A stretch of 64,000 bases of DNA from Cetorhinus maximus. Lineage: Eukaryota. Positions within the stretch are counted from its first letter, which is position 1. Each line of letters starts with the position of its first letter. The position numbers were made by a program, and so were the translations under genes. The notes under the pieces are model-generated. The model was not told where the DNA came from. It ran no database searches and was given only the letters and a program-made list of their open reading frames with translations. This document shows positions 3,208-63,019 of the stretch, piece by piece. The DNA lies in assembly GCF_964194155.1 (NCBI RefSeq), contig NC_135901.1, positions 21,080,001-21,144,000 on the forward strand, given 5' to 3'.

Positions 3208-3800
3208 TCACTTATGAATTCGCTGATATGTCAGCCAGGAGCATGACTGAGTGAATCCCCTCCCATACACAGAGCAGGTGAACGGCCACTCTCCACTGTG
3301 AGTTTGCTGGTGTCTCTGAAAGCTCAATGAATGGCTGATTGCCTTCCCACACAGAGAACAAACGACTGAACTCTGTTCATTGTGAATGTACTGGTGTCTC
3401 AGAAGGTTGGATGAATTAATGATTCCCTTCCCACACACAGAGCAGGTGAACGGCCTCTCCCCAATGTGACTGTGTCGATGAATTTCCAGCTTTGATGGGG
3501 AAACAAACCCCTTCCTACAATCCACACATTTCCACAGTTTATCCGTGGTACCGGTGTCCGCGTGGCTATCCATGTTGGATGATCAGTTCAAACTTCGTCC
3601 ACACAAAGTTTCTCCCCACTGTGAAAGGTGCGATGCTTTTTCAGGCTGTGCAATTGTTCAAAACATTCTCCTTCTATATTGAAGCTTCAATGATATCCAG
3701 CGCCTGATGTATTGAGTGAATCTGTCAGGTTTTGATGAGGTGTTTGGTTTGAGTTTCCTGCCTGCAAATCCTTCCAAATGAATATCATATAATAGGAGTT
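3208..3800 (-). pseudogene. C2H2 zinc-finger pseudogene (ZNF copy 1)
   Basis: About 4 partly degenerate fingers with GERPFTC-type linkers. The family start codon is mutated to ACG (3544-3546). The family exon-start block lies at about 3700-3800. Confidence 0.85.
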
Positions 3801-5529: not shown

Positions 5530-7790
5530 AAAAACAAAAAGCTAAAAGCTACTGCGGATACTGGAAATCCAAAACAAAATAAAAACAGAATTACCTGGAA
5601 AAACTCAGCAAGTCTGGCAGCATCGGCGGAGAAGAAATCAGTCAACATTTCGAGCCCTCATGGCCCTTCGGCAGAACTGAAGCATAGTTTCAACAAGGGA
5701 GAAATATAAATTGGTTTAAGGTGGGTGGGGGGGGAAGAGACACATTGAGGGTGTGGTGTGAGCAGATAATCAAAAGATGTCAGAGACAAAAGGGTCAAAG
5801 AGATGTTGAAGGTGGTGGTCTTTGTCTGAGAAAAGTGCTAATTAAGAATGGAAGACAGGATATTCAAAGTACAGCTCTAGTGGGGGTGGGGTGGAAAGAC
5901 TAAAGGTTTTAGTTTTAGATTTAAAAATAATGGAAATAAGTGGGGAAAGAAGAATCTATATAAATTATTGAAAAAAAAGGCGGGTGTGGGGGGAAAAGAA
6001 ACGGGGTGGGGATGGGGGGAGGGGGAGTTTAAGATCTAAAGTTGTTGAATTCAATATTCAGCCCAGAAGGCTGTAAAGTGCCTAGTCGGAAGATGAGGTG
6101 CTGTTCCTCCAGTTTGCGTTGAGCTTCACTGGAACAATGCAGCAAGCCAAGGACAGACATGTGGGCAAGAGAACAGGGTGGAGTGTTAAAATGGCAAGCG
6201 ACAGGGAGGTTTGGGTCTTTCTTGCGGACAGACCGCAGGTGTTCCGCAAAACGGTGGCCCAGTTTGCGTTTGGTCTCTCCAATGTAGAGGAGACCGCATT
6301 GGGAGCAACGAATGCAGTAGACTAAGTTAGGGGAAATGCAAGTGAAATGCTGCTTCACTTGAAAGGAGTGTTTGGGCCCTTGGACGGTGAGGAGAGAGGA
6401 AGTGAAGGGGCAGGTGTTGCATCTTCTGCGTGGGCATGGGGAGGTGCCATAAGTGGGGGTTGAGGAGTAGGGGGTGATGGAGGAGTGGACCAGGGTGTCC
6501 CGGAGGGAACGATCCCTACGGAATGCCGTCAAGGGGGGTGAAGGGAAGATGTGTTTGGTGGTGGCATCATGCTGGAGTTGGCGGAAATGGCGGAGGATGA
6601 TCCTTTGAATGCGGAGGCTGGTGGGGTGATAAGTGAGGACAAGGGGGACCCTATCATGTTTCTGGGAAGGAGGAGAAGGCGTGAGGGAGGATGCACGGGA
6701 TATGGGCCGGACACGGTTGAGGGCCCTGTCAACGACCATGGATGGAAAACCTCGGTTAAGGAAAAAGGAGGACATGTCAGAGGAGCTGTTTTTGAAGGTA
6801 GCGTCATCAGAACAGATGCGACGGAGGCGAAGGAACTGAGAGAATGGGATGGAGTCTTTACAGGAAGCGGGGTGTGAGGAGCTGTAGTCGAGGTAGCTGT
6901 GGGAGTCGGTAGGCTTGTAATGGATATTGGTGGACAGTCTATCATCAGAAATTGAGACAGAGAGGTCAAGGAAGGGAAGAGAAGTGTCAGAGATGGACCA
7001 TGTGAAGATGATGGAGGGGTGGAGATTGGAAGCAAAATTAATAAATTTTTCCAGGTCCCGACGATAGGGTCCCCCTCTACATTGGAGAGACCAAACGCAA
7101 ACTGGGCCACCGTTTTGCGGAACACCTGCGGTCTGTCCGCAAGAAAGACCCAAACCTCCCTGTCGCTTGCCATTTTAACACTCCACCCTGTTCTCTTGCC
7201 CACATGTCTGTCCTTGGCTTGCTGCATTGTTCCAGTGAAGCCCAACGCAAACTAGAGGAACAGCACCTCATCTTCCGACTAGGCACTTTACAGCCTTCTG
7301 GGCTGAATATTGAATTCAACAACTTTAGATCTTAAACTCCCCCTCCCCCCATCCCCACCCCGTTTCTTTTCCCCCCACACCCGCCTTTTTTTTCAATAAT
7401 TTATATAGATTCTTCTTTCCCCACCTATTTCCATTATTTTTAAATCTAAAACTAAAACCTTTAGTCTTTCCACCCCACCCCCACTAGAGCTGTACTTTGA
7501 ATATCCTGTCTTCCATTCTTAATTAGCACTTTTCTCAGACAAAGACCACCACCTTCAACACCTCTTTGACCCTTTTGTCTCTGACATCTTTTGATTATCT
7601 GCTCACACCACACCCTCAATGTGTCTCTTCCCCCCCCACCCACCTTAAACCAATTTATATTTCTCCCTTGTTGAAACTATGCTTCAGTTCTGCCGAAGGG
7701 CCATGAGGGCTCGAAATGTTGACTGATTTCTTCTCCGCCGATGCTGCCAGACTTGCTGAGTTTTTCCAGGTAATTCTGTTTTTATTTTGT
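5530..7790 (-). mobile_element. Penelope-like element (RT C-terminus + GIY-YIG endonuclease) with inverted 3' duplication
   Basis: ORF 6029-7063(-) has FLDL, YKPTD, SQFLRLRRICS, NLVYCIRC..C..LYIGETKR and GLN. 7073-7789 is the reverse complement of 5575-6290. Flanks ATAGAAAAGAC(G/A)GT at 5516-5529 and 7791-7804. Confidence 0.95.
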
Positions 7791-7819: not shown

Positions 7820-8350
7820 TACACGGCGCGGGGTAATACGACCTATCTCTGAGAGAGTGGCCGCATTGCGCAGATGTGGGAAGGTCCCGCCCCCGGAAAC
7901 AGTCGAACTGCGCTGAGCATGCGCGGTGCGGCTCCCAGAAGCTGAGCGGGACGAGCGCAGCCTCAGCAACAGTGAAGAAACATCATAAACTGATAGGTAG
8001 TTCCAACGGCGGGGGTTATACCCAGCATTCCGAGCGGGGGGAGAAGGTCCTCTGTCCTCGCAACAGAAGACCTGAACGCATGCGCAGTTCCACTGAGTGT
8101 TCCGAGCATGCGCAGGGTGAGTGTTGATGCTGGGGAGATGTTTGTTTGTCGCTCGGCAGCGGGGAGGGGAACCGGCGGTTAGGCGGCCTCTGTTCACCCG
8201 GTGTAGGCCGCGAAATCCGACAAAAGACCTGCAGCTGCCGCGTTTGCAGCGGGGCTTTTTCCCGGATTAAGCCCGCGTTCACGGCCGCCATCTTGTTTGC
8301 GCTTGGAGCGGGGGAATGATGGGTCATTTTGGTGACGCAGGGCGGGGCTT
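7820..8350 (+). promoter_or_regulatory. CpG-island promoter and non-coding first exon of ZNF copy 2
   Basis: CpG-rich. NRF1-like GCATGCGC motifs at about 7917, 8078 and 8106; splice donor GTGAGT at about 8117; YY1 motif GCCGCCATCTT at 8284; GC box at about 8340. Confidence 0.75.
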
Positions 8351-9014
8351 CAGGGTCCCAGTGACTAGGAGAGAAAATAATTGATTCATTAATTTTATTC
8401 TCAGTCTGTGCGCAGGGGCTGGAAAACAATCCAGGCTTAGTAAAGGGAGGGGAAAAATTGGGAGTGGAAGAAAGAAATGGTAACAGATAGTGCGATGGGT
8501 TGGAACTTCAGCACGGGTATGGGAGAGTGTGTGAGACGGGAATGTTCAGTTTTGGGGGAACATAAGAAGAAAATTGTTTCACAAAAACTTGATTTGTCTG
8601 TTACGATTTTTTCCTGCACTGAGAGTGATGACTTTTGTAAACACATTTTACAGGACAATTAAAGAAGGACGATTTACAGACGGGAAACTCAAACCAAACA
8701 TTACATCAACATCTGACAGTCATTCAATCATCAGGACCTGAATATCATCGGCCTTTGGATGTGGAAAGAGAAATGTTTGTCTGTTCTTTCTTTGGGAAAA
8801 GATTTCAAATATCAGTGTGATTGGAAAAGCACCAAGACACACTCACACCCGAGTGAGAGTGTTCCAGTGCATTGACTGTGGAAAGAGAATTAACAAGTTA
8901 CACAGCCTGAAACAACATCACACAATTCGCAGTGGCAGGAACCATACATTTGTTCTGTGTGGACAAGGCTTCAATTGATTTTCCAACCTGGAGAGACACA
9001 AGAACACCCATACC

Positions 9015-9761
9015 ATGGAGAAACAGTGGAAATGTGAGGACTGTGGGAAGGGATTCAATTATCGATGCCTGTTGGAAACTCATCAACGCATTCACACTGG
9101 AGAGAGACCGTTCACCTGCTCTGAGTGTGGGAAGGGATTTACTCAGTCAGCTGGCCTTATGTTACACCAGCGAATTCACACTGAAGACAGACCATTCAGC
9201 TGCACTGCTTGTGGAAGGAGGTTCAGGCATTCTTCCACCCTCATCGCACATCAACGGGTTCACACTGGAGAGAAGCCGTTCACATGCTCCGTGTGTGGGA
9301 AGGGATTCACTCAATCAGCTGGTGTCATGTTACACCAGAGAATTCACACTGAGGATTGGCCATTTAGCTGCACTTCCTGTGGAAAGAGGTTCAAGTCTCC
9401 ATTTAGTCTCACTGTACACAAGCGAGGTCACACTGGCGAAAGACCATTTATCTGCTCTGTGTGTGGGAAGGGATTCACTCAGTCATCCAACCTGCTGACA
9501 CACCAGCGAGTTCATACTCAGGAGAGACCATTCACCTGCTCCGTATGTGGGAAGGGATTTACTCAGTCAGCCAGTCTCATGTTGCACCAGCGAGTTCACA
9601 CCGGGGAGAGGCCGTTCAGCTGCTCTGTGTGCGGGATGAGATTCGCTCAATCATCCAGCCTGCTAAGACACCAGCGAAGTCACACTGAGGAGAAGCCATT
9701 CAGCTGCACTTCTAGTGGGAAGAGGTTCAGGAAGTCATCCACCAACAGTGCGAACCAATGA
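9015..9761 (+). CDS. C2H2 zinc-finger protein, 8 intact fingers (ZNF copy 2)
   Basis: Kozak ACCATGG start and tandem CxxC...HxxxH units with TGERPF/TEDRPF linkers. Two degenerate fingers continue to about 9854. Exon acceptor at about 8653. Confidence 0.85.
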   Translation: MEKQWKCEDCGKGFNYRCLLETHQRIHTGERPFTCSECGKGFTQSAGLMLHQRIHTEDRPFSCTACGRRFRHSSTLIAHQRVHTGEKPFTCSVCGKGFTQSAGVMLHQRIHTEDWPFSCTSCGKRFKSPFSLTVHKRGHTGERPFICSVCGKGFTQSSNLLTHQRVHTQERPFTCSVCGKGFTQSASLMLHQRVHTGERPFSCSVCGMRFAQSSSLLRHQRSHTEEKPFSCTSSGKRFRKSSTNSANQ

Positions 9762-13649: not shown

Positions 13650-14270
13650 TTATTGTTTGTGAACTCGCTGGTGCCTCAGTAGGTTGGATGAACAAGTAAA
13701 CCTCACCCCACAAATGGTGCAGGTGAACGGCTTCTCTCTAGTGTGAACTCTCTGGTGTCGCACCAGACAGGATGATCGAGTGAATCCCTTCCCACACACT
13801 GAACAGGTGAACGGTCTCTCTCCAGTGTGAATTCGCTGGTGTACAGTGAGTTGAGATGATCGGCGGAAACCAGTCCCACAGTGAGGGCACCTAAACGGTC
13901 TCTCGTCAGTGTGAACACGCTGATGCGTCATCAGCTCCCCAGAACTTTTATAGCACTTTCTGCAGTCAGGACATTTAAAAGGTCTCTCGTCAGTGTGACT
14001 GCGCTGGTGTTGCAGCAGGTTGGGTAAATTAGCAAATTCCTTCCCACACAAGGAGCAGGTGAACGGTCTCTCCCCAGTGTGGCTACGTCGATGAGTTTCC
14101 AACTCAAATGGATAATTACATCTCTTCCCACACTCACCACATTTATATGGCTTCTCCCCGGTGTGACTTCGCTTGTGTCTCGACAGGCTAGATGATTGGC
14201 TGAATTCTCGTCCACACACAGAACACATGTATGATTTCTCTCGGCTGAAAATGCTGCTTTTTCCTTCCAT
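13650..14270 (-). CDS. C2H2 zinc-finger protein, 7 fingers (ZNF copy 3)
   Basis: ATG of MEGKS at 14270 in context AACATGG; 7 intact fingers; ends HQRVHKQ*. Confidence 0.88.
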
Positions 14271-21378: not shown

Positions 21379-22464
21379 ATGGAAGGAAAAAGCATTCACA
21401 GTGGAGCGAAACCGTACATGTGTTGTGTGTGTGGTCGAGGCTTCAGACAGTCATCTAGCCTGTCAAGACACAAGCGCGGTCACACCAGGGAGAAACCGTG
21501 GAAATGTGGCGACTGTGAGATGGGATGCAGAACCCCATCTGAGCTGGAAACTCATCGGCGCAGTCACACTGGGGAGAGACCATTCACCTGCTCTGAGTGT
21601 GGGAAGGGATTCATTAATTCTTCCAATCTACTGACACACCAGCGAGTTCACACAGGGGAGAGACCATTTACCTGCTCCGAATGTAGGAAGAACTTCACTT
21701 CCTCATCCACCTTGCTGACACACAAGCGGGTTCACACTGGGGAGAGACCTTTTAAATGCCCAGACTGCGGGAAATGCTATAAAAGTTCCTGGGAACTGAT
21801 GTCCCATCAACGTGTCCACACTGATGAGAGACCATTCAGGTGCACTCATTGTGGGTCTGAGTTCAAGACATTATCTGACCTTACTGTACACCGGCGCACT
21901 CACACTGCAGACAGACTGTTCACCTGCTCTGAGTGTGGGAAGGGATTCATCCGTTCATCCAACTTGTTGGAACACCAACGGGTTCACACTGGGGAGAGAC
22001 CGTTCACCTGCTCCGAATGTGGGAAGGGATTCACTCAGTCATCTAGCCTGTTGAAGCACAAGCGAGTTCACACTGGGGAGAGGCCGTTCACCTGCTGCGT
22101 GTGTGGGAAGGGATTCACTCAGTTGTGCAGCCTGCAGAAACACCAACGAGTTCACACTGGGGAGAGACCGTTCACTTCCATTGAACATGGGAAGAGAGTC
22201 ACTCAATCATCCAGCCTGCTGATGCACCAGGGAGCCTGCACTGGGAAGAGGCCATTTACCTGCTCTGAATGTGGGAAGGAATTCACTCGGTCCTCCCAGC
22301 TGCTGGCACACCAGAGAGTTCACACTGGGGAAAGGCTGTTCAGCTGCTCAGAGTGTGAGAAAGGGTTCACTCAGTTCTCCAGCTTGCTGAGACACCAGCG
22401 AGTTCACAAAGATGAGAGATCTTTTAAGTGCCCAGAAAATGGTATAAAAGTTTCCAGGAACTGA
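21379..22464 (+). CDS. C2H2 zinc-finger protein, 11 intact and 1 degenerate finger (ZNF copy 4)
   Basis: MEGKS start (AACATGG). A frameshift in finger 13 ends the ORF; decayed fingers continue to about 22735. Confidence 0.85.
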
Positions 22465-41269: not shown

Positions 41270-42383
41270 AGGATATTAGAAGCGGAGGACTTGCAGACAG
41301 AAATCTCAAACCGAAGAACATGTCAATGTCTGACAGTCACTTGATTCATCAGGACCTGAATATCATTGGAAATTTGAATCTAGAAGGAGAAATGTTTGAC
41401 TGTTCTGTCAGCTTCTAAACGTTTTGAACATCATTGTAACTGGAAAAGCACACACACACACGCACTCACCTTGGTTACAGTGCTCCAGTGGACCGACTGT
41501 GGAAAGAGCTTTAACCAGATACACAGCCTGAAAAAACAGGGCACCATTCACAGTGAGGAGAGACAGTACACATGTTCTGTGTATGGACGAGGCTCCAACT
41601 GATCCTCAAACCTGGAAAGACAAAAGGACACCCACACCATTGGAGAAACCATGGAAATGTGGGGACTGTGGGAAGGGATTCCCTTCCCCATCTGCGCAGG
41701 AAACTCATCGTCGTATTCACACTGAGGAGAGGCCTTTCACCTGCTCTGATTGTGGGAAGGGATTCACTCAGTTACGCAATCTCCTGCGACACCAGAGAGT
41801 TCACACTGGGGAGAGGCCATTCACCTGCTCTGAGTGTGGAAAGGATTCACTGATTCATCCACCCTCCTGAGACACCAGCGAGCTTACACTGCAAAGAGAC
41901 TGTTCACTTGCTCTGAGTGTGGGCAGGGATTCAATGCTTCATCCACCCTGCAGACACATTAACGTCTCCACACTGGGGAGAGGCCATTCATCTGCTCTGA
42001 CTGCTGGAAAGGATTCACTCAATCCTCCCATCTGCTGACAAACCAGTGAATTCACACAGGGGAGAAATCCTACACCTGCCCTATCTGTGAGAAGGGATTC
42101 ACTCAGTTGTCTAATCTGCTGCAACACCAAGGAGAGGCCATTCAGCTGCTCTAAATGTGGGAAGGGATTCAGTGCTTCATCCACACTGCTGAGACACCAG
42201 CGAGTTCACACTGGGGAAAGGCCGTTCACCTGCTCTGAATGTGGGAAGGGATTCACTCAGTCATCCCACCTGCTGTCACACTGGCAAGTTCACATCTGCA
42301 AAGGGTAATTTACCTGCTCCATGTGTGGGAAGGGATTCACTCAGTCATCTAGCTTGCTGGGACACCAGCAAGTTCACAAGTAG
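41270..42383 (+). pseudogene. ZNF pseudogene (copy 8)
   Basis: Exon-start block at about 41270. Start codon disrupted (CACCATTGG). Multiple frameshifts and stops among about 9 fingers. Confidence 0.88.
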
Positions 42384-46257: not shown

Positions 46258-47079
46258 TCAGCCAGTTGGCTGACTCAGTGAATCCTTTCCCACACTCAGA
46301 ACAGGTGAACAGTCTCTCTCTTCTGTATGAACTCGTTGGTGCCTTCGCAGGCTGGATGAATCAGCGAATACCTTCCTGCATTCAGAGCAGGTGAATGGCC
46401 TCTCCCTGGTGTGAACTCGCTGATGTCTCAGCAGCTGGGATGACACACTGAATCCTTTCCCACACATACAGCAGGTGAAAAGCCTCTCCCCGGTGTGAAC
46501 TCGCTGGTGTTTCCACAGGCTGGATGAGTGTGTGAATCCCTTCCCACACTCCTTGCAGCTGAATGGCCTCTCTCCAGTGTGAACGTGTCGGTGTGTCCGT
46601 AGACTGGTCGACCGAGTGAATCCCTTCCCACACACGGAGCAGGTAAATGGCCTATCTTCAGTGTGAGCCATCTGGTGTAGCAGCATGTTGGTTAACTGAG
46701 TGAATCCCTTCTTGCACACAGAGCAGATGAATGGCCTCTCCCCAGTGTGAACTACATGGTGATTCTGCAGGGTGGATGATTCACTGAATCCCTTCCCACA
46801 CACAGAGCAGGTGAATGGCCTCTCCCCAGTGTGAACTCGCTGGTGTGTTTGCAGTTGGGATGAGCAAGTGAATCCCTTCCCACACTCAGTGCAGGTGAAT
46901 GGCCTCTCCCCAGTGTGAACTCGCTGATGTGTAAACAGGTGGGATGAGTGTGTGAATCCCTTTCCACACATGGAGCAGATGAACGGCTTCGCCCCGGTGT
47001 GAATCCGTCGATGAATTTCCAGTGCAGATGGGGTACGGAATCCCTTCGCACACTCCCAACATTTCCATGGTTTCTCCAT
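46258..47079 (-). CDS. C2H2 zinc-finger protein, 9 fingers (ZNF copy 9)
   Basis: Kozak CACCATGG start and 9 intact fingers. A frameshift in a GA run ends the ORF; the 3' end abuts the LTR. Confidence 0.85.
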   Translation of the reverse strand: MEKPWKCWECAKGFRTPSALEIHRRIHTGAKPFICSMCGKGFTHSSHLFTHQRVHTGERPFTCTECGKGFTCSSQLQTHQRVHTGERPFTCSVCGKGFSESSTLQNHHVVHTGERPFICSVCKKGFTQLTNMLLHQMAHTEDRPFTCSVCGKGFTRSTSLRTHRHVHTGERPFSCKECGKGFTHSSSLWKHQRVHTGERLFTCCMCGKGFSVSSQLLRHQRVHTRERPFTCSECRKVFADSSSLRRHQRVHTEERDCSPVLSVGKDSLSQPTG

Positions 47080-48354
47080 GGTGAGGGTGTCCTTGTATCT
47101 CCCCAGGTTCGACGCTCAGTTGAAAACTTGTCCACACACACAACATGAGTATGGTCCCTCTCCACTATGAATGGTGTGTTTTTTCAGTCTGTGTAACTAG
47201 TGAAAGCTCTTTCCACTGTTAGTGCACTGGAACACTCTCAGTCGTGTGTGTGTGTCAGTGCTTTTCCAGTCACACTTAAGTTTAAAACCTTCCGAAGCAC
47301 ACAGAACAGACAAACATTTCTGCTTCTTGTTTCAAAAGCTGAAGACATTCAGCTCCCGATGAATCAGGTGACTGTCAGATTCTGATGTGATGTTTGGTTT
47401 GATAATCTGTCTGCAAATCCTCCCCTTCTAATGTCCTGTAAAAGGAGTTTACAAAAGTCATAAATGTCAGTACAATATAGAAATTCAGAACACACAATTC
47501 TAGTTTCTATGGATCATTCCTTCTTCTCTCATTCCCCAAAATGCTGTAAATCTTGATCCCACAAACTCTCCCTCCATTCTCACTCTGCTGGTACTAATAT
47601 ACACCCTCCCAATTCTCCTGAAGGTGTTAATTCATGCTGATTGACAAATCCATGCTTACAAATTCTATATATTTATTGGACAAAAATTAATGTAGTATAA
47701 AGTACTGTATTGCATGATACATGGGGCATGTGAGGATGAACTTTATTTAGGCAGTGAGTGGGCATGAACTGGAACTTTTTGCCTACGAGCGTGGTGGAAA
47801 CAGAGTTGATAAATGATTTCAAAATGAAATTGGATGGGCACTTGAAGGAAATAAACTTGCAGGGCTGCAGGGTCATAGAGGAGGAATGGGACTGAGTGGA
47901 TTCCTCTACAAAGAGTCAGCATGGACTTGAATGGACTCCTTCTGTGCCATCGTGACTCTATATATAATATATAACATAGCTACAGTTCAATATTACAAGA
48001 CTAGAAATAACAATAAATGTACTTTATTACAGAACCATAAATAATAATCTAATCTGATCATATAACATTAATCATATCTCTGTCTTATATTAATTAACTG
48101 TCCCCTTAAATGCCAGCCATCTCTTGGGGAAACTACCCCTCTAATTAGAAACATTAGGAAAAAGACCATCCTTTTAGCCAGACAAATAAATGTGTCAAGC
48201 TGAGGGAGCAAAGGATGTCAATGTCTTTAAGAGAGAGGGAGACCTGAGCCAACCTTTCCAGAGTCTGCGCCCTCCCTGGATTCACTTCCTTTCCCTTCAG
48301 CTCCTGTAAGACAACAATTAGAAAATAATTTCCCGAATTAGAAAACAAATGGAA

Positions 48355-50519: not shown

Positions 50520-51572
50520 AGGTTATTAGAAGGGGAGGATTTGCAGACAGATATCTCAAAACAAATATCACCTTAAGATCTGACAAAGTTACTCGATTCA
50601 GTGGGGCCAAATATCATCGGTTTTTGAATCTGCAGGGACAAGTGTTTGTTCTGACTGCTTCAGAAGATTTTAGACATCAGTGTGAGCGTTCCAGTGCATT
50701 GACTGTGGAAAGAACTTTAACCAGTTACACAGCTTGAAAAAACATTGCTATTTACTGTGGGGAGAGACTGTACATGTGCTCTGTGTGAGGCTTCAGCTGA
50801 TCATGCAACCTGGAGAGACACAAGGACACCTGCACCATGGAGCAACCATGGACATGTGGGGTCTGTGGGAAGGGATTCAGATCGCCATCTGCACTGGAAT
50901 CTCATCGATGCATTCACACTGGGGAGAGGCCATTTACCTGCTCTGAGTGTTGCAAGGGTTTCATTCATTCATCGCACCTACTGAGACACCAGTGAGTTCA
51001 CACCGGGGAAAGGCCCTTCAGCTGCTCTGAGTGTGGGAAGGGCTTCAGTGATTCATCCAACCTGCTAACACAGCAGAGGCCGTTCACCTGCTCTGATTAT
51101 GGGAAGGGATTCACTCAGTTATCCCATTTTTTGACACATCACCGAGTTCACATTGGGGAGAAGCCGTTCACCTGCTGTGAGTGTGGGAAGGGATTTACCA
51201 CTTCACCTGAACTGCTGACACACCAGTGAGTTCACACTGGGGAGAGGCCGTTTACCTGCTCTGAGTGTGGGAAGGGTTTCACTCACTTAACCAACCTGTT
51301 GAGATACCAGCGAGTTCATACTGGGGAGAGGCCATTTGGCTGCTCTGAGTGTGGGAAAGCATTCATTGATTCGTCCAGCCTGCTGATACACCAGTGAGTT
51401 CACACTGGGGAGAGGCCGTTCATCTTCTCCGAGTGTGGGAAGGGATTCAGTCGGTCAACTTACCTGCAGAAACATCAGCGAGTTCACACTGGGAAAAGGC
51501 AATTCCCCTGCTCTGAGTGTGGAAAGGGATTCAGCGATTCATCCACCTTACTGAGACACCAGCAAGTTCACG
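50520..51572 (+). pseudogene. ZNF pseudogene (copy 10)
   Basis: ATG at 50837. Repeated CAG-TGA-GTT-CAC (probable CGA>TGA) stops and a deletion. The 3' flank is paralogous to 42450-43250. Confidence 0.9.
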
Positions 51573-60099: not shown

Positions 60100-61092
60100 T
60101 CAGTCCTGGGTGTTATTTACAGGAGCAATAACACCAGAATCCAACCCCTGCAGACACTTGTGAACTCGCTGGTGTGTTAGCAGGTGGGATGACCGAGTGT
60201 ATCCCTTCCCACACTCAGAGCAGGTGAACGGCCTCTCCCCAGTGTGAGTGAGTTTGTGTAAATGCAGGCTGCCAGACTGAGTGAATCCCTTCCCACACAC
60301 AGAGCAGGTGAATGGTCTCTCCCCAGTGTGAGTGCTTTGGTGAGCAGTGAGAATTGATAACTGCCTGAAACTCTTTCCACAGTGAGTACAGCTGAATGGC
60401 TTATCCTCAGTGTGAATTCGCTGGTGTGACAGAAGGCTGGATGAATTTGTGAAATCCTTCCCACACATAGAGCAGGTGAATGGCCTCTCCCCCGTGTGAA
60501 CTCGCTTGTGTGCATTGAGGTTGGATGAAGACCTGAATCTCTTTCCACAGTAAGTGCAGCTGAATGGTCTCTCCTCAGTGTGAACTCGCTGGTGTGACAA
60601 CAGGTTAGATGAAAGAGTAAATCCCTTCCCACACACAGAACAGGTGAATGACTTCTCCCCTGCGTGAATTCGCTGGTGTGACCAAAGACCGGATGGCCCA
60701 GTGAAATCCTTCCCACACAAGGAGCAGGTGAATGGCCTCTCCCCTGTATGAACTCGCTGATGTGCGTTGAGGTTAGATGAACACGAGAACTTCTTTTCAC
60801 AGTAAGTGCAGCTGAAAGGTCTCTCCTCAGTGTGAATACTTTGGTGTGACAGCAGGTGGGATGACAAAGTGAATCCCTTCCCACACTCAGAGCAGGTGAA
60901 TGACTTCTCCCCAGTGTGACTGCGTCGATGGATTTCCAGCAGGTATGGATAATTGAATCCTTTCCCACATTCCTCACATTTCCACGGTTTCTCCAGGGTG
61001 CCAGCCCCAATGTGATTGCGTTTATGGATTTCCAGTCGGGATGGATAATTGAATCCTTTCCCACAGTCCCCACATTTCCATGGTTTCTCCAT
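60100..61092 (-). CDS. C2H2 zinc-finger protein, 11 fingers (ZNF copy 11)
   Basis: Kozak CACCATGG at 61092; 11 intact fingers; C-terminal tail CLQGLDSGVIAPVNNTQD*. Confidence 0.9.
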   Translation of the reverse strand: MEKPWKCGDCGKGFNYPSRLEIHKRNHIGAGTLEKPWKCEECGKGFNYPYLLEIHRRSHTGEKSFTCSECGKGFTLSSHLLSHQSIHTEERPFSCTYCEKKFSCSSNLNAHQRVHTGERPFTCSLCGKDFTGPSGLWSHQRIHAGEKSFTCSVCGKGFTLSSNLLSHQRVHTEERPFSCTYCGKRFRSSSNLNAHKRVHTGERPFTCSMCGKDFTNSSSLLSHQRIHTEDKPFSCTHCGKSFRQLSILTAHQSTHTGERPFTCSVCGKGFTQSGSLHLHKLTHTGERPFTCSECGKGYTRSSHLLTHQRVHKCLQGLDSGVIAPVNNTQD

Positions 61093-61851
61093 GGTGCCGG
61101 TGCTCTTGTGTCTCTCCAGGTTGGACAATCAGTTGAAGCCTCGCCCACAGACAGAACACATGTACGGTTTCTCCCCACTGTGAATGGTGTGATGTTTTTT
61201 CAGGCAGGATAACTGGTTAAAGCTCTTTCCACAGTCAGTGCCTGGAACACTCTCACTCAGGTATATGTGTGTCTCTTGGTGCTTTTTTACTCGTACTGAA
61301 TTTTGAAATCTTCTTCCAAAGACAGAACAGGGTAACATTTCTCTTTCCACAGTCAAAAGCCAATGATATTTAGGTCATGATGAAGCATGTGGCTCTGTCA
61401 GATCTTGACGTGAAGTTTAGTTTGAGTTTCCTGCCTGTAAATCTTCCTCTTCAAAAACCCTGGAAAAGGAATTCACAAAATTAATTCAGAACAGACAATT
61501 CTACTTTGTATGGAAGATTTTTCCTCTCATTTACCCAAAAGCTGTAAATCCTCGTCCCACACACTCTCCCTCCTCCCTGGGCTGAAATCCAAACTCATCG
61601 CACCATCTCCACCATTTCATGGCTGCACTCCCAGTCTCCACACCCCCTGATCCCCACTCTGGCTGAGTTCAGTTTGCCAGCCCGTATGTAGAGGGAGAGT
61701 CAAATCAAGAGTCAATAATTTTCTCTCCTAGTCACAGGACCCCAAAGTCCCACCCATTCTGTGTTGCATTACCACATTGGCCACACATGTACTCTGCTTG
61801 CCGCTGAAACATGACGACCGCCAACATGAGCCTGTTCCCTAAAAAGGCTGC

Positions 61852-62571
61852 TTTTTTTTTTCAGGTTTAACATTTTATTGCAAAGTTGCACTTTTTACCA
61901 AACTCATCCTCACACTAAAGCCTTTTTATTCTCTTGTGACAAAGAATATAAATACACTAAAAGATTTTTAAAACAAAAAAAGTTACAGAATGGGTTTCTT
62001 AGATACATCAGTCATGAATCAACTCATCCACAAAAAAGAATTCAATTCAAAAGGAAGCTTGGTACAAGGTTGGAATCCCACTTTAGATATCATCAATGTC
62101 CTCATCATCGTCCCCAATATCGTCAAACTGGATTTCATCATCATCACTAGGTCCAAAGGTGTCTGTTTCATTGATTTTGGCATGCTCTGGAAGTTCACCT
62201 TAGGCTTTTAAACTTCTTGCCTCATCCGCATTATATTTCAGGATGACATCAGCCTTATTATCCTGATAATCTCTCAACCCAACCAATATAATGTCTGACG
62301 TGTTTATCCAAACCTTCTTTCTCAGCTTCCCTCGAATATGGCAAAGCCTCTTCACACCATCAAAACACATGGCTTCCAAACGTCCATTGCCCAGCATCTT
62401 AATCACCTGGGCATATTCCTGACCATCTTCTTTAAACACCAGCTCACGTTTCTCGGACTCATTTTCATTCTTACCACGTCGCCTGTTCTTACCTCCCTTA
62501 CCTTTATTCTTGGGCATAGCTCTACGTGTGTCCGCGGCCTCCGGCTGCTCCTGTTCACCGCACACCGCACT
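61852..62571 (-). pseudogene. EIF1AX: EIF1AX (eIF1A) processed pseudogene
   Basis: Intronless 144-codon frame 62517-62083 ([15 protein letters not shown]...DEDIDDI*) with one nonsense codon (62200-62202). AATAAA at 61874-61879, poly(A) at 61852-61861, 17-bp TSD. Confidence 0.97.
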
Positions 62572-63019
62572 TTCCCTAGAAAGGCTGCATTTATTTGTGC
62601 TACAACACCAGGGGAAGTACTTCCTGCATCAACACAAAGACAGTGTGAGTCGTGGAAAGCGAGAGTCGCTTTTAAGTGCAGCTGGTGTCTTATATCTCAT
62701 TTTACCATTTGCTGCTGGACTGACATTCTAAATTAAGTTTTGAAATACAAGCTGAAATCTGGTATCAGGGAGTAAATTAAAACACAATCATGTTAGGATT
62801 GACTGTTCCCCAAAATCCTGTCAGTCAAATTCTCATCAGAAATACATCAGGGGATTGTATTTTAATAGGTCTTTTCACAGATGCCATAAAATGACTTATT
62901 TTTAAATAAATATGAACATAGTCTTCAGTAAATAAATAATAAATAACGATATTTAATAAAACAACCACCCAATGTAGGGTTCGACACTCTGACTCTGGGT
63001 TTCTGATCTCCATTAACCA

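Follow-up and report, generated by a model that had tools for sequence, protein, structure and literature searches.

According to the available passages of two sources, CUG and ACG in optimal context initiate translation at about 1-10% of the AUG level, CUG being the best (PMC9789052, PMC5666671), and AAG and AGG practically never serve as starts (PMC9789052). The vertebrate genes named in the review passages as having a non-AUG codon as their sole start are EIF4G2/DAP5 (GUG) and TEAD1 (AUU) (PMC5666671). Lineage-specific tandem expansions of C2H2 zinc finger (ZNF) genes have been described for the tetrapod KRAB-ZNFs and the cyprinid FiNZ-ZNFs (available part of Wells et al. 2023, PMC10547256); the words shark, Chondrichthyes and cartilaginous are absent from the main text of that paper as available (PMC10547256). 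KRAB-domain families are reported, in the available part of another study, to be enriched among those lost in cartilaginous fishes (PMC8455134). In the open literature that we searched, nothing was found on the leader described here or on non-AUG initiation in ZNFs of sharks.

The window analyzed here is the whole stretch of 64,000 nucleotides (G000:C24:21.08-21.14 Mb, in a genome of 3.99 Gb). It contains nine C2H2 arrays, six of a long-leader type and three short-leader sisters. The genes themselves are ordinary lineage-specific tandem C2H2 genes: they show the C-x2-C-x12-H-x3-H array with TGEKP-type linkers of the PF00096 type (8 PF00096 stretches in copy 2), and, as in tandem C2H2 (Kruppel-type) families, the paralogs are clustered and their structural residues are under purifying selection. 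Like the KRAB- and FiNZ-ZNFs, as far as the available text describes these, they comprise hundreds of clustered tandem-finger genes with birth and death of copies, variable DNA-contact residues and conserved Cys, His, Phe and Leu. Unlike in those families, the protein of copy 2 consists only of fingers from its start (the ORF opens six residues before the first finger), an effector domain was not found, and the 5’ leader is made of dead fingers. A Pfam search of the main ORF and leader showed no KRAB domain, either among the best 25 of 29 families for copy 2 or among all 11 for the leader translated with X.

Copy 2 has a 3’ splice acceptor AG (TTTTACAG|G; 8652..8653, +) that opens an exonic 5’ leader of 361 nt (8654..9014, +), composed of an old linker region and three fossil C2H2 fingers, recognized in part by Pfam zf-C2H2 matches on an in-frame paralog with X read at TGA. 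The main ORF follows from ACCATGG and encodes 248 aa with 8 intact fingers (9015..9761, +). The acceptor was placed using contig cover, joints to an upstream exon and conservation. In four runs from four organisms cover begins at the acceptor (8653/8654), and in two of the four an upstream exon is joined to it, according to loose ends; that these runs are RNA is a guess, and as they consist of contigs, depth was not taken as expression. Across unbiased lineages the A of the acceptor is kept in 63/66 and the G in 64/66, so the conservation test is able to detect selection. The first-pass annotation had proposed that the first three fingers have become a 5’ leader; the cover and joints at the acceptor support this, now as a spliced leader, and so do the divergence data given below. 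The majority sequence of the family runs in a single frame from the acceptor through the three fingers into the array, interrupted by two TGAs, one at helix +3 in finger 1 and the other at helix -1 in finger 3; both are DNA-contact positions.

In each of the six long-leader copies of the window a fossil finger has TGA at its helix position -1, with the linker codon following 39 nt later; the coordinates agree with those previously annotated. In copy 2 this in-frame TGA, in fossil finger 3, lies at 8976..8978 (+). Copy 7 (46258..47118, -) has the TGA at 47118-47116, an ATG at 47079 and a 273-aa ORF with 9 fingers; copy 9 (60100..61131, -) has the TGA at 61131-61129, an ATG at 61092 and a 330-aa ORF with 11 fingers; and copy 8 (50798..50839, +) has both TGA and ATG, its ORF ending after 52 codons. 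Copy 6 (41600..41641, +) is a frameshifted pseudogene with the TGA and a broken start. Thus the linker codon reads ATG in ACCATGG, as annotated, in 4/6 copies; it is ACG at 3546 and ATT at 41639, where an extra base shifts the frame. Copy 1 (3208..3585, -) combines the TGA (3585-3583) and the linker ACG (3546-3544) with a short degenerate array, and its start had been taken as simply decayed, which does not hold: an in-frame ATG in optimal context (AACATGG, 3573-3571) replaces it nine codons upstream. Two of the sister genes, copy 3 (13650..14270, -) and copy 4 (21379..22464, +), have Gln at helix -1 (CAA and CAG, respectively) and start at the upstream ATG of MEGKS, as had been noted; in copy 3 finger 3 is still coding.

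Several other features of the window were recorded. Copies 1 and 2 lie head-to-head, with a perfect inverted duplication of at least 190 nt (5574-5763 vs 7601-7790; the query began at 7601). An open frame of 381 codons at 6029-7174 (-) seems to resemble the reverse transcriptase end and GIY-YIG endonuclease of Penelope-like elements, and many LINE-like fragments lie between the ZNF genes. A match to eIF-1A (PF01176) is an uninterrupted ORF (62203-62625, -) inside the ZNF cluster, likely a processed retrocopy. A promoter-like GC-rich stretch is found at about 8060-8300 and in upstream regions of paralogs, and two motifs, GCATGCGCAG and GCCGCCAT, which we take to be NRF1-like and YY1-like, have 21 and 19 matches in 83 upstream regions.

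A 22-nt anchor from the leader has 636 exact matches, which sets a minimum for the number of family members, most of them located on a single 65-Mb contig; the anchor is matched exactly in only 17 of 83 unbiased copies, which extrapolates to some 3,000 copies, a rough upper figure. Loci selected by the anchor are biased in fossil finger 2 and in the TGA flanks, and site tests were therefore run on an unbiased set: 1.264 Mb sampled without the anchor gave 83 copies (low-identity matches and duplicates dropped), which represent 72 independent lineages. These samples were taken from 19-29 Mb, and a young sub-family located elsewhere is under-represented in them; random 10-kb sampling across the whole contig was sparse (3 long-leader copies in 200 kb). 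The comparison of intact and broken lineages at the linker ATG and the next Trp and Cys used 92 clean lineages out of 109, and the tree used 136 of 197 copies, 61 being left out for poor alignment in a segment. This tree is star-like, with TGA at its root.

The closest named proteins come from sharks, and proteins beginning with MEKPWKC were found in Pristiophorus, Chiloscyllium and Heterodontus. TGA also predominates at this codon in contigs from four other organisms, with C at its first base in 1.6, 3.4, 27 and 3.0% of depth. Because of these proteins in three sharks and of these contigs, we infer that the dead-finger leader is an old arrangement among sharks. A protein search with the leader read with X returned no protein with all three fingers intact (weak evidence).

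The leader shows little sign of coding constraint. The Cys and His codons of the fossil fingers are kept at 0.31-0.83, vs 0.83-0.93 in live fingers; with CpG-prone sites masked, divergence at non-degenerate and four-fold sites is 0.107 vs 0.120 in the fossil fingers and 0.105 vs 0.184 in the CDS. In intact lineages 18/148 leader indels are multiples of three, vs 4/4 in the CDS, and the frame between the upstream ATG and the main ATG is distributed 28/26/22. Leaders are also mosaic: L138 and L206 differ at 2/85 intron sites but at 42/316 leader sites. RNAalifold gave no consensus structure for 56 leaders. Two apparent signals were discarded: a twofold gap between leader and intron in recent pairs was an artefact of pairing, being gone or reversed with pairs picked on other regions, and the fossil frame had a raw pN/pS of 0.49, a signal that vanished once CpG-prone sites were masked.

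Neutral evolution of the leader had been set as a check on the first-pass proposal, and the outcome is mixed: indels fall in random frame, as under neutrality, but fossil finger 2, the slowest-diverging block of the leader (8850..8932 in copy 2, +, end approximate), diverges at 0.092, about 40% more slowly than intron (0.157), evenly and with no codon pattern. The first Cys codon of this finger (about 8868), TGC, reads TGA in 16/72 unbiased lineages, a high count for a C-to-A change, which marks a large young sub-family. The slow divergence may reflect selection on a motif or gene conversion. A selected DNA or RNA motif within fossil finger 2, such as a protein-binding site, could hold the whole leader in place; the block diverges less than expected from context-matched intron and leader sites (0.092 vs 0.150), with no codon periodicity, and its mean pairwise divergence (0.167) equals that of non-degenerate CDS sites (0.166). 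However, the reduction is even over about 80 nt with no invariant core, intact and broken lineages do not separate (p=0.30), no consensus structure was found, the block is partly or wholly gone in about 6/67 signature-defined copies, and conversion, given the mosaic leaders, can explain the slow divergence. We consider such a motif unlikely.

The sharing of the TGA by six copies out of six suggested a conserved function. The codon is TGA in 58/78 unbiased copies and TAA in 5/78, and its 39-nt spacing to the linker is kept in 60/77, about what leader indel rates predict for 36 nt. The check whether TGA is better kept than its neighbours was answered in the negative: across the 72 independent lineages it is kept in 50/65, vs 342/437 for the seven other exonic TGA triplets (p=0.87), and on the tree of 136 copies it changes 15 times, vs 12-19 times for neighbouring codons. 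The presence of TGA in all six copies, judged from these alignments, reflects descent, not chance and not selection. An apparent excess of TAA (6/44) was rejected, as it is clade-bound and matches other TGA triplets.

The sister family indicates where the codon came from. Its members lack fingers 1 and 2, start at MEGKS and still code for finger 3; at the TGA site, 19 copies have CAA (10), CGA (6), CGT (1), GGA (1) and TAA (1), and none has TGA (7 further sister copies lack finger 3 and are outside this count). CGA is a CpG codon, in which deamination gives Gln on one strand and a stop on the other. Since the sister family has CGA or CAA at this codon, a single CpG mutation is indicated, and the simplest alternative listed in the first-pass annotation, one inherited CGA-to-TGA change, fits best, the TGA being kept like other triplets. 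Very probably, then, the TGA is passive, a single old mutation inherited by the family.

Weak selection on the TGA is possible, because any stop (TGA or TAA) is kept in 46/51 intact vs 22/29 broken lineages (p=0.11) and intact lineages have fewer indels in the interval from TGA to ATG (8 in 53 vs 11 in 29, p=0.053). A crude link between stop and intactness (p=0.008) was rejected, as it fell to p=0.11 after 17 misaligned lineages were removed. In the clade formed by L131, L026, L193 and L248, TGA has become AGA and the linker ATG has become ATT; this clade has an in-frame ATG at -23 codons, and fossil finger 3 may be coding again.

The start codon itself turns over. The linker ATG is kept like neutral triplets (44/62 unbiased lineages) and is present alike in intact (42/53) and broken (22/29) lineages, whereas the next Trp is kept in 51/53 intact lineages (p=0.015), and the next Trp and Cys do separate intact from broken lineages (p=0.008 and 0.001). 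In the sister family the start is ATG in 23/23 intact copies (not de-duplicated). Eleven intact lineages lack the linker ATG; in four of them a different ATG lies in frame at -5, -9 or -23 codons, whereas the remaining seven are without any. Lineages without ATG are intact in 7/16 cases, vs 10-16% expected in a neutral simulation (p=0.008), a figure inflated by the use of the most intact member of each cluster. In the contigs of the four other organisms, C is read at the T of the ATG in 15-35% of depth, to which other linkers may contribute.

A pattern search of the genome yielded 26 copies with ACG or ACA at this position, 16 of them with at least six intact fingers. The sequence AAC CTG G, nine codons upstream (8988..8990 in copy 2, +, where this in-frame CTG in the optimal context AACCTGG is a candidate alternative start whose use we infer), is present in 25/26 of these copies vs 211/371 ATG copies, the latter figure being lowered by a young sub-family. 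In a comparable region it is found in 24/24 copies without ATG vs 85/100 with ATG (p=0.04, about eight clades), and allowing for relatedness in 7/7 vs 24/42 (p=0.04), a weak association found after many tests.

Four sub-families have ACG or ACA for ATG, no in-frame ATG, and the CTG in optimal context nine codons upstream. Clade B (L298, L301, L302, L307, L309, L311) comprises the sole matches of at least 98% among 40 candidates scored, the next being at 88%, and none of the 40 scored that belongs to it bears the ATG; all members have TGA at -13, no in-frame ATG and leader frames that differ. A search with one clade B protein found no close ortholog. The 223 open codons have their first Met at codon 122 (85 in L309), and before codon 122 there are 14 silent and 6 replacement changes, vs a neutral replacement share of 0.73 predicted from the leader’s own mutation spectrum (p=6e-5). 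The leaders of this clade change at 46/341 sites, near the silent rate (14/86). Clade C has 10 silent vs 4 replacement changes (p=2e-4); clades A and D, counting intact members only, are not significant singly (4 vs 3, p=0.09; 8 vs 9, p=0.06). The four clades pooled have 36 silent vs 22 replacement changes before the first Met (p about 1e-8), and 21 vs 15 when CpG-linked changes are left out (p=4e-5). L322, an 88% relative of clade B, has ACA, no in-frame ATG and the same CTG, and between it and L302 there are 17 silent and 6 replacement changes before the first Met (p=2e-6). In L309 (G000:C24, about 21.047 Mb) the intron and acceptor are replaced by unrelated sequence and the start is ACA, with the 223-codon frame fully open; this copy was probably silenced recently.

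These substitution patterns indicate that purifying selection acts, in the ATG-less clades, on the fingers ahead of the first Met, and that these fingers are translated, likely from a non-standard start codon. The start of clade B must fall in the 13 codons behind the stop, barring an AUG gained by splicing or editing. As in genes with a sole non-AUG start, coding constraint here extends ahead of the first in-frame AUG and is limited by a stop. The resemblance to EIF4G2/DAP5 and TEAD1, as the available passages describe them, extends to an in-frame stop shortly upstream, to the absence of AUG before the conserved coding region, and to a candidate near-cognate codon flanked by a purine at -3 and by G at +4; unlike in those genes, the putative shark start is polymorphic among paralogs of a single large family (ATG, ACG, ACA and replacement ATGs). 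We lean slightly towards a CUG or ACG start in the ATG-less clades. CUG at -9 would be favoured over ACG, because intact copies with ACA and AGG exist and because ATG was gained twice independently at -9.

An AUG could instead be supplied to the ATG-less clades by C-to-U editing of the ACG, or by a hidden first exon that is coding and joins an AG shortly behind the TGA. Exon 1 is variable, and all 19 listed clade members have the AGs of CTG GAG AGA, but the best-placed AGs follow G with no pyrimidine tract, and the contigs, which are not specific to ACG copies, cross the 171-nt stretch whole, with one low-depth joint among those listed. Editing would agree with the reading of both T and C at this position in the other organisms’ contigs; it would leave three ACA copies (L269, L309 and L322) and one AGG copy (L190) without an AUG. 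We regard this as quite unlikely.

Our preferred reading is a passive TGA followed by a start within the next 13 codons, mostly ATG and likely non-AUG in the ATG-less sub-families, a joint reading that we consider probable. The ancestral gene would have been read through all fingers, as suggested by the majority sequence, still in frame apart from its two TGAs; the stops and the linker ATG would have been fixed before the star-like expansion, judging from the tree and from the proteins of other sharks. The leader, spliced into the mRNA, would since have been drifting, which in the DNA is visible as random frame, new stops and gain and loss of upstream ATGs. Ribosomes would scan the leader and arrive at ACCATGG through re-initiation or leaky scanning, and selection against strong overlapping upstream ATGs would be no more than ordinary. 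Where the ATG was lost, the start would have moved inside the 13-codon window, as seen in the new ATGs at -9 or -5 of some lineages; in other ATG-less lineages it would probably be the optimal-context CUG at -9 or the ACG itself, judging from the selection on the fingers. The TGA needs no function, and only fixes where the start can be. That whole sub-families are translated only from CUG (-9) or ACG, so that the 13-codon start window, in which paralogs would alternate between ATG and near-cognate starts, would tune dose gene by gene, is a more tentative proposal, to which we give a little less than even credence.

Regulatory uORFs such as those of ATF4 and GCN4 are conserved; they are short and terminate at some distance ahead of a main start that is strong. 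The central proposal of the first-pass annotation was of this kind: selection would maintain the upstream ATG together with its short ORF and with the TGA that precedes the start by 39 nt, for control through re-initiation or leaky scanning. The upstream ATGs do exist, at 8773 and 41392 as annotated and at 47317 and 61338, one base off the numbers given, and so does the short ORF; it closes at the TGA at 8818, at helix +3 of fossil finger 1, and not at the helix -1 TGA. A purine stands at -3 of the upstream ATG, whose ORF of 15 codons (8773..8820 in copy 2, +) ends about 195 nt before the main ATG, which resembles ATF4 and GCN4. Every lineage has some upstream ATG (none lacking in 42 intact lineages, though none in 23 broken ones either), good-context upstream ATGs overlapping the start are found in 0/42 intact vs 4/23 broken lineages (p=0.013), and TGA predominates in the contigs of the four other organisms. 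The depletion of overlapping ATGs is ordinary for a scanned leader. Unlike in ATF4 and GCN4, upstream ATG, uORF length and stop are not conserved in the shark: the ATG is kept in 42/65 lineages (32/50 intact vs 17/24 broken) and differs in 22/99 recent pairs, the ORF has 15 codons in just 10/28 intact lineages and ranges from 3 to 69 codons, and the -1 TGA, which is conserved no more than neutral triplets are, closes a frame opened by an ATG in 4/37 intact lineages, copy 9 of the window among them. Gains of ATG are not rarer than gains of CAT (259 vs 294 expected, against 221 vs 244). These counts largely refute a conserved uORF device, which we hold to be very unlikely. In copy 9 (61338-61129, -) one frame of 69 codons leads from the upstream ATG to the -1 TGA, the sole such case among 28 intact lineages, with CGA at the finger 1 stop and compensating frameshifts.

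Recoding of the UGA, by readthrough or as selenocysteine, into longer proteins that include the fossil fingers, the other function suggested at first, is extremely improbable: the majority sequence does keep its frame and its only two stops are TGAs, and one in-frame paralog has five stops, all TGA, but the frame from upstream ATG to main ATG is random as counted above, the leader has further stops and no codon periodicity and is unshifted in only 4/225 copies, each with five stops, the last His of finger 3 is kept at 0.31, TAA replaces TGA as noted, the extra TGAs derive from CGA or TGC codons, and an Rfam search of the window at gathering score gave no match to SECIS or any other recoding element or family.

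The TGA is thus ordinary, a founder mutation copied hundreds of times, and an example of shared descent mimicking conservation. The more interesting feature is the turnover of the start codon, with likely non-AUG initiation in the ATG-less sub-families. The review passages available name only single genes with a sole non-AUG start (PMC5666671). If true, repeated non-AUG starts in a duplicating family of transcription factors would provide a natural allele series for start-codon strength; the counting of shark ZNF repertoires would change, since annotation would miss or truncate the ATG-less genes; and protein dose would be set gene by gene across a family of hundreds.
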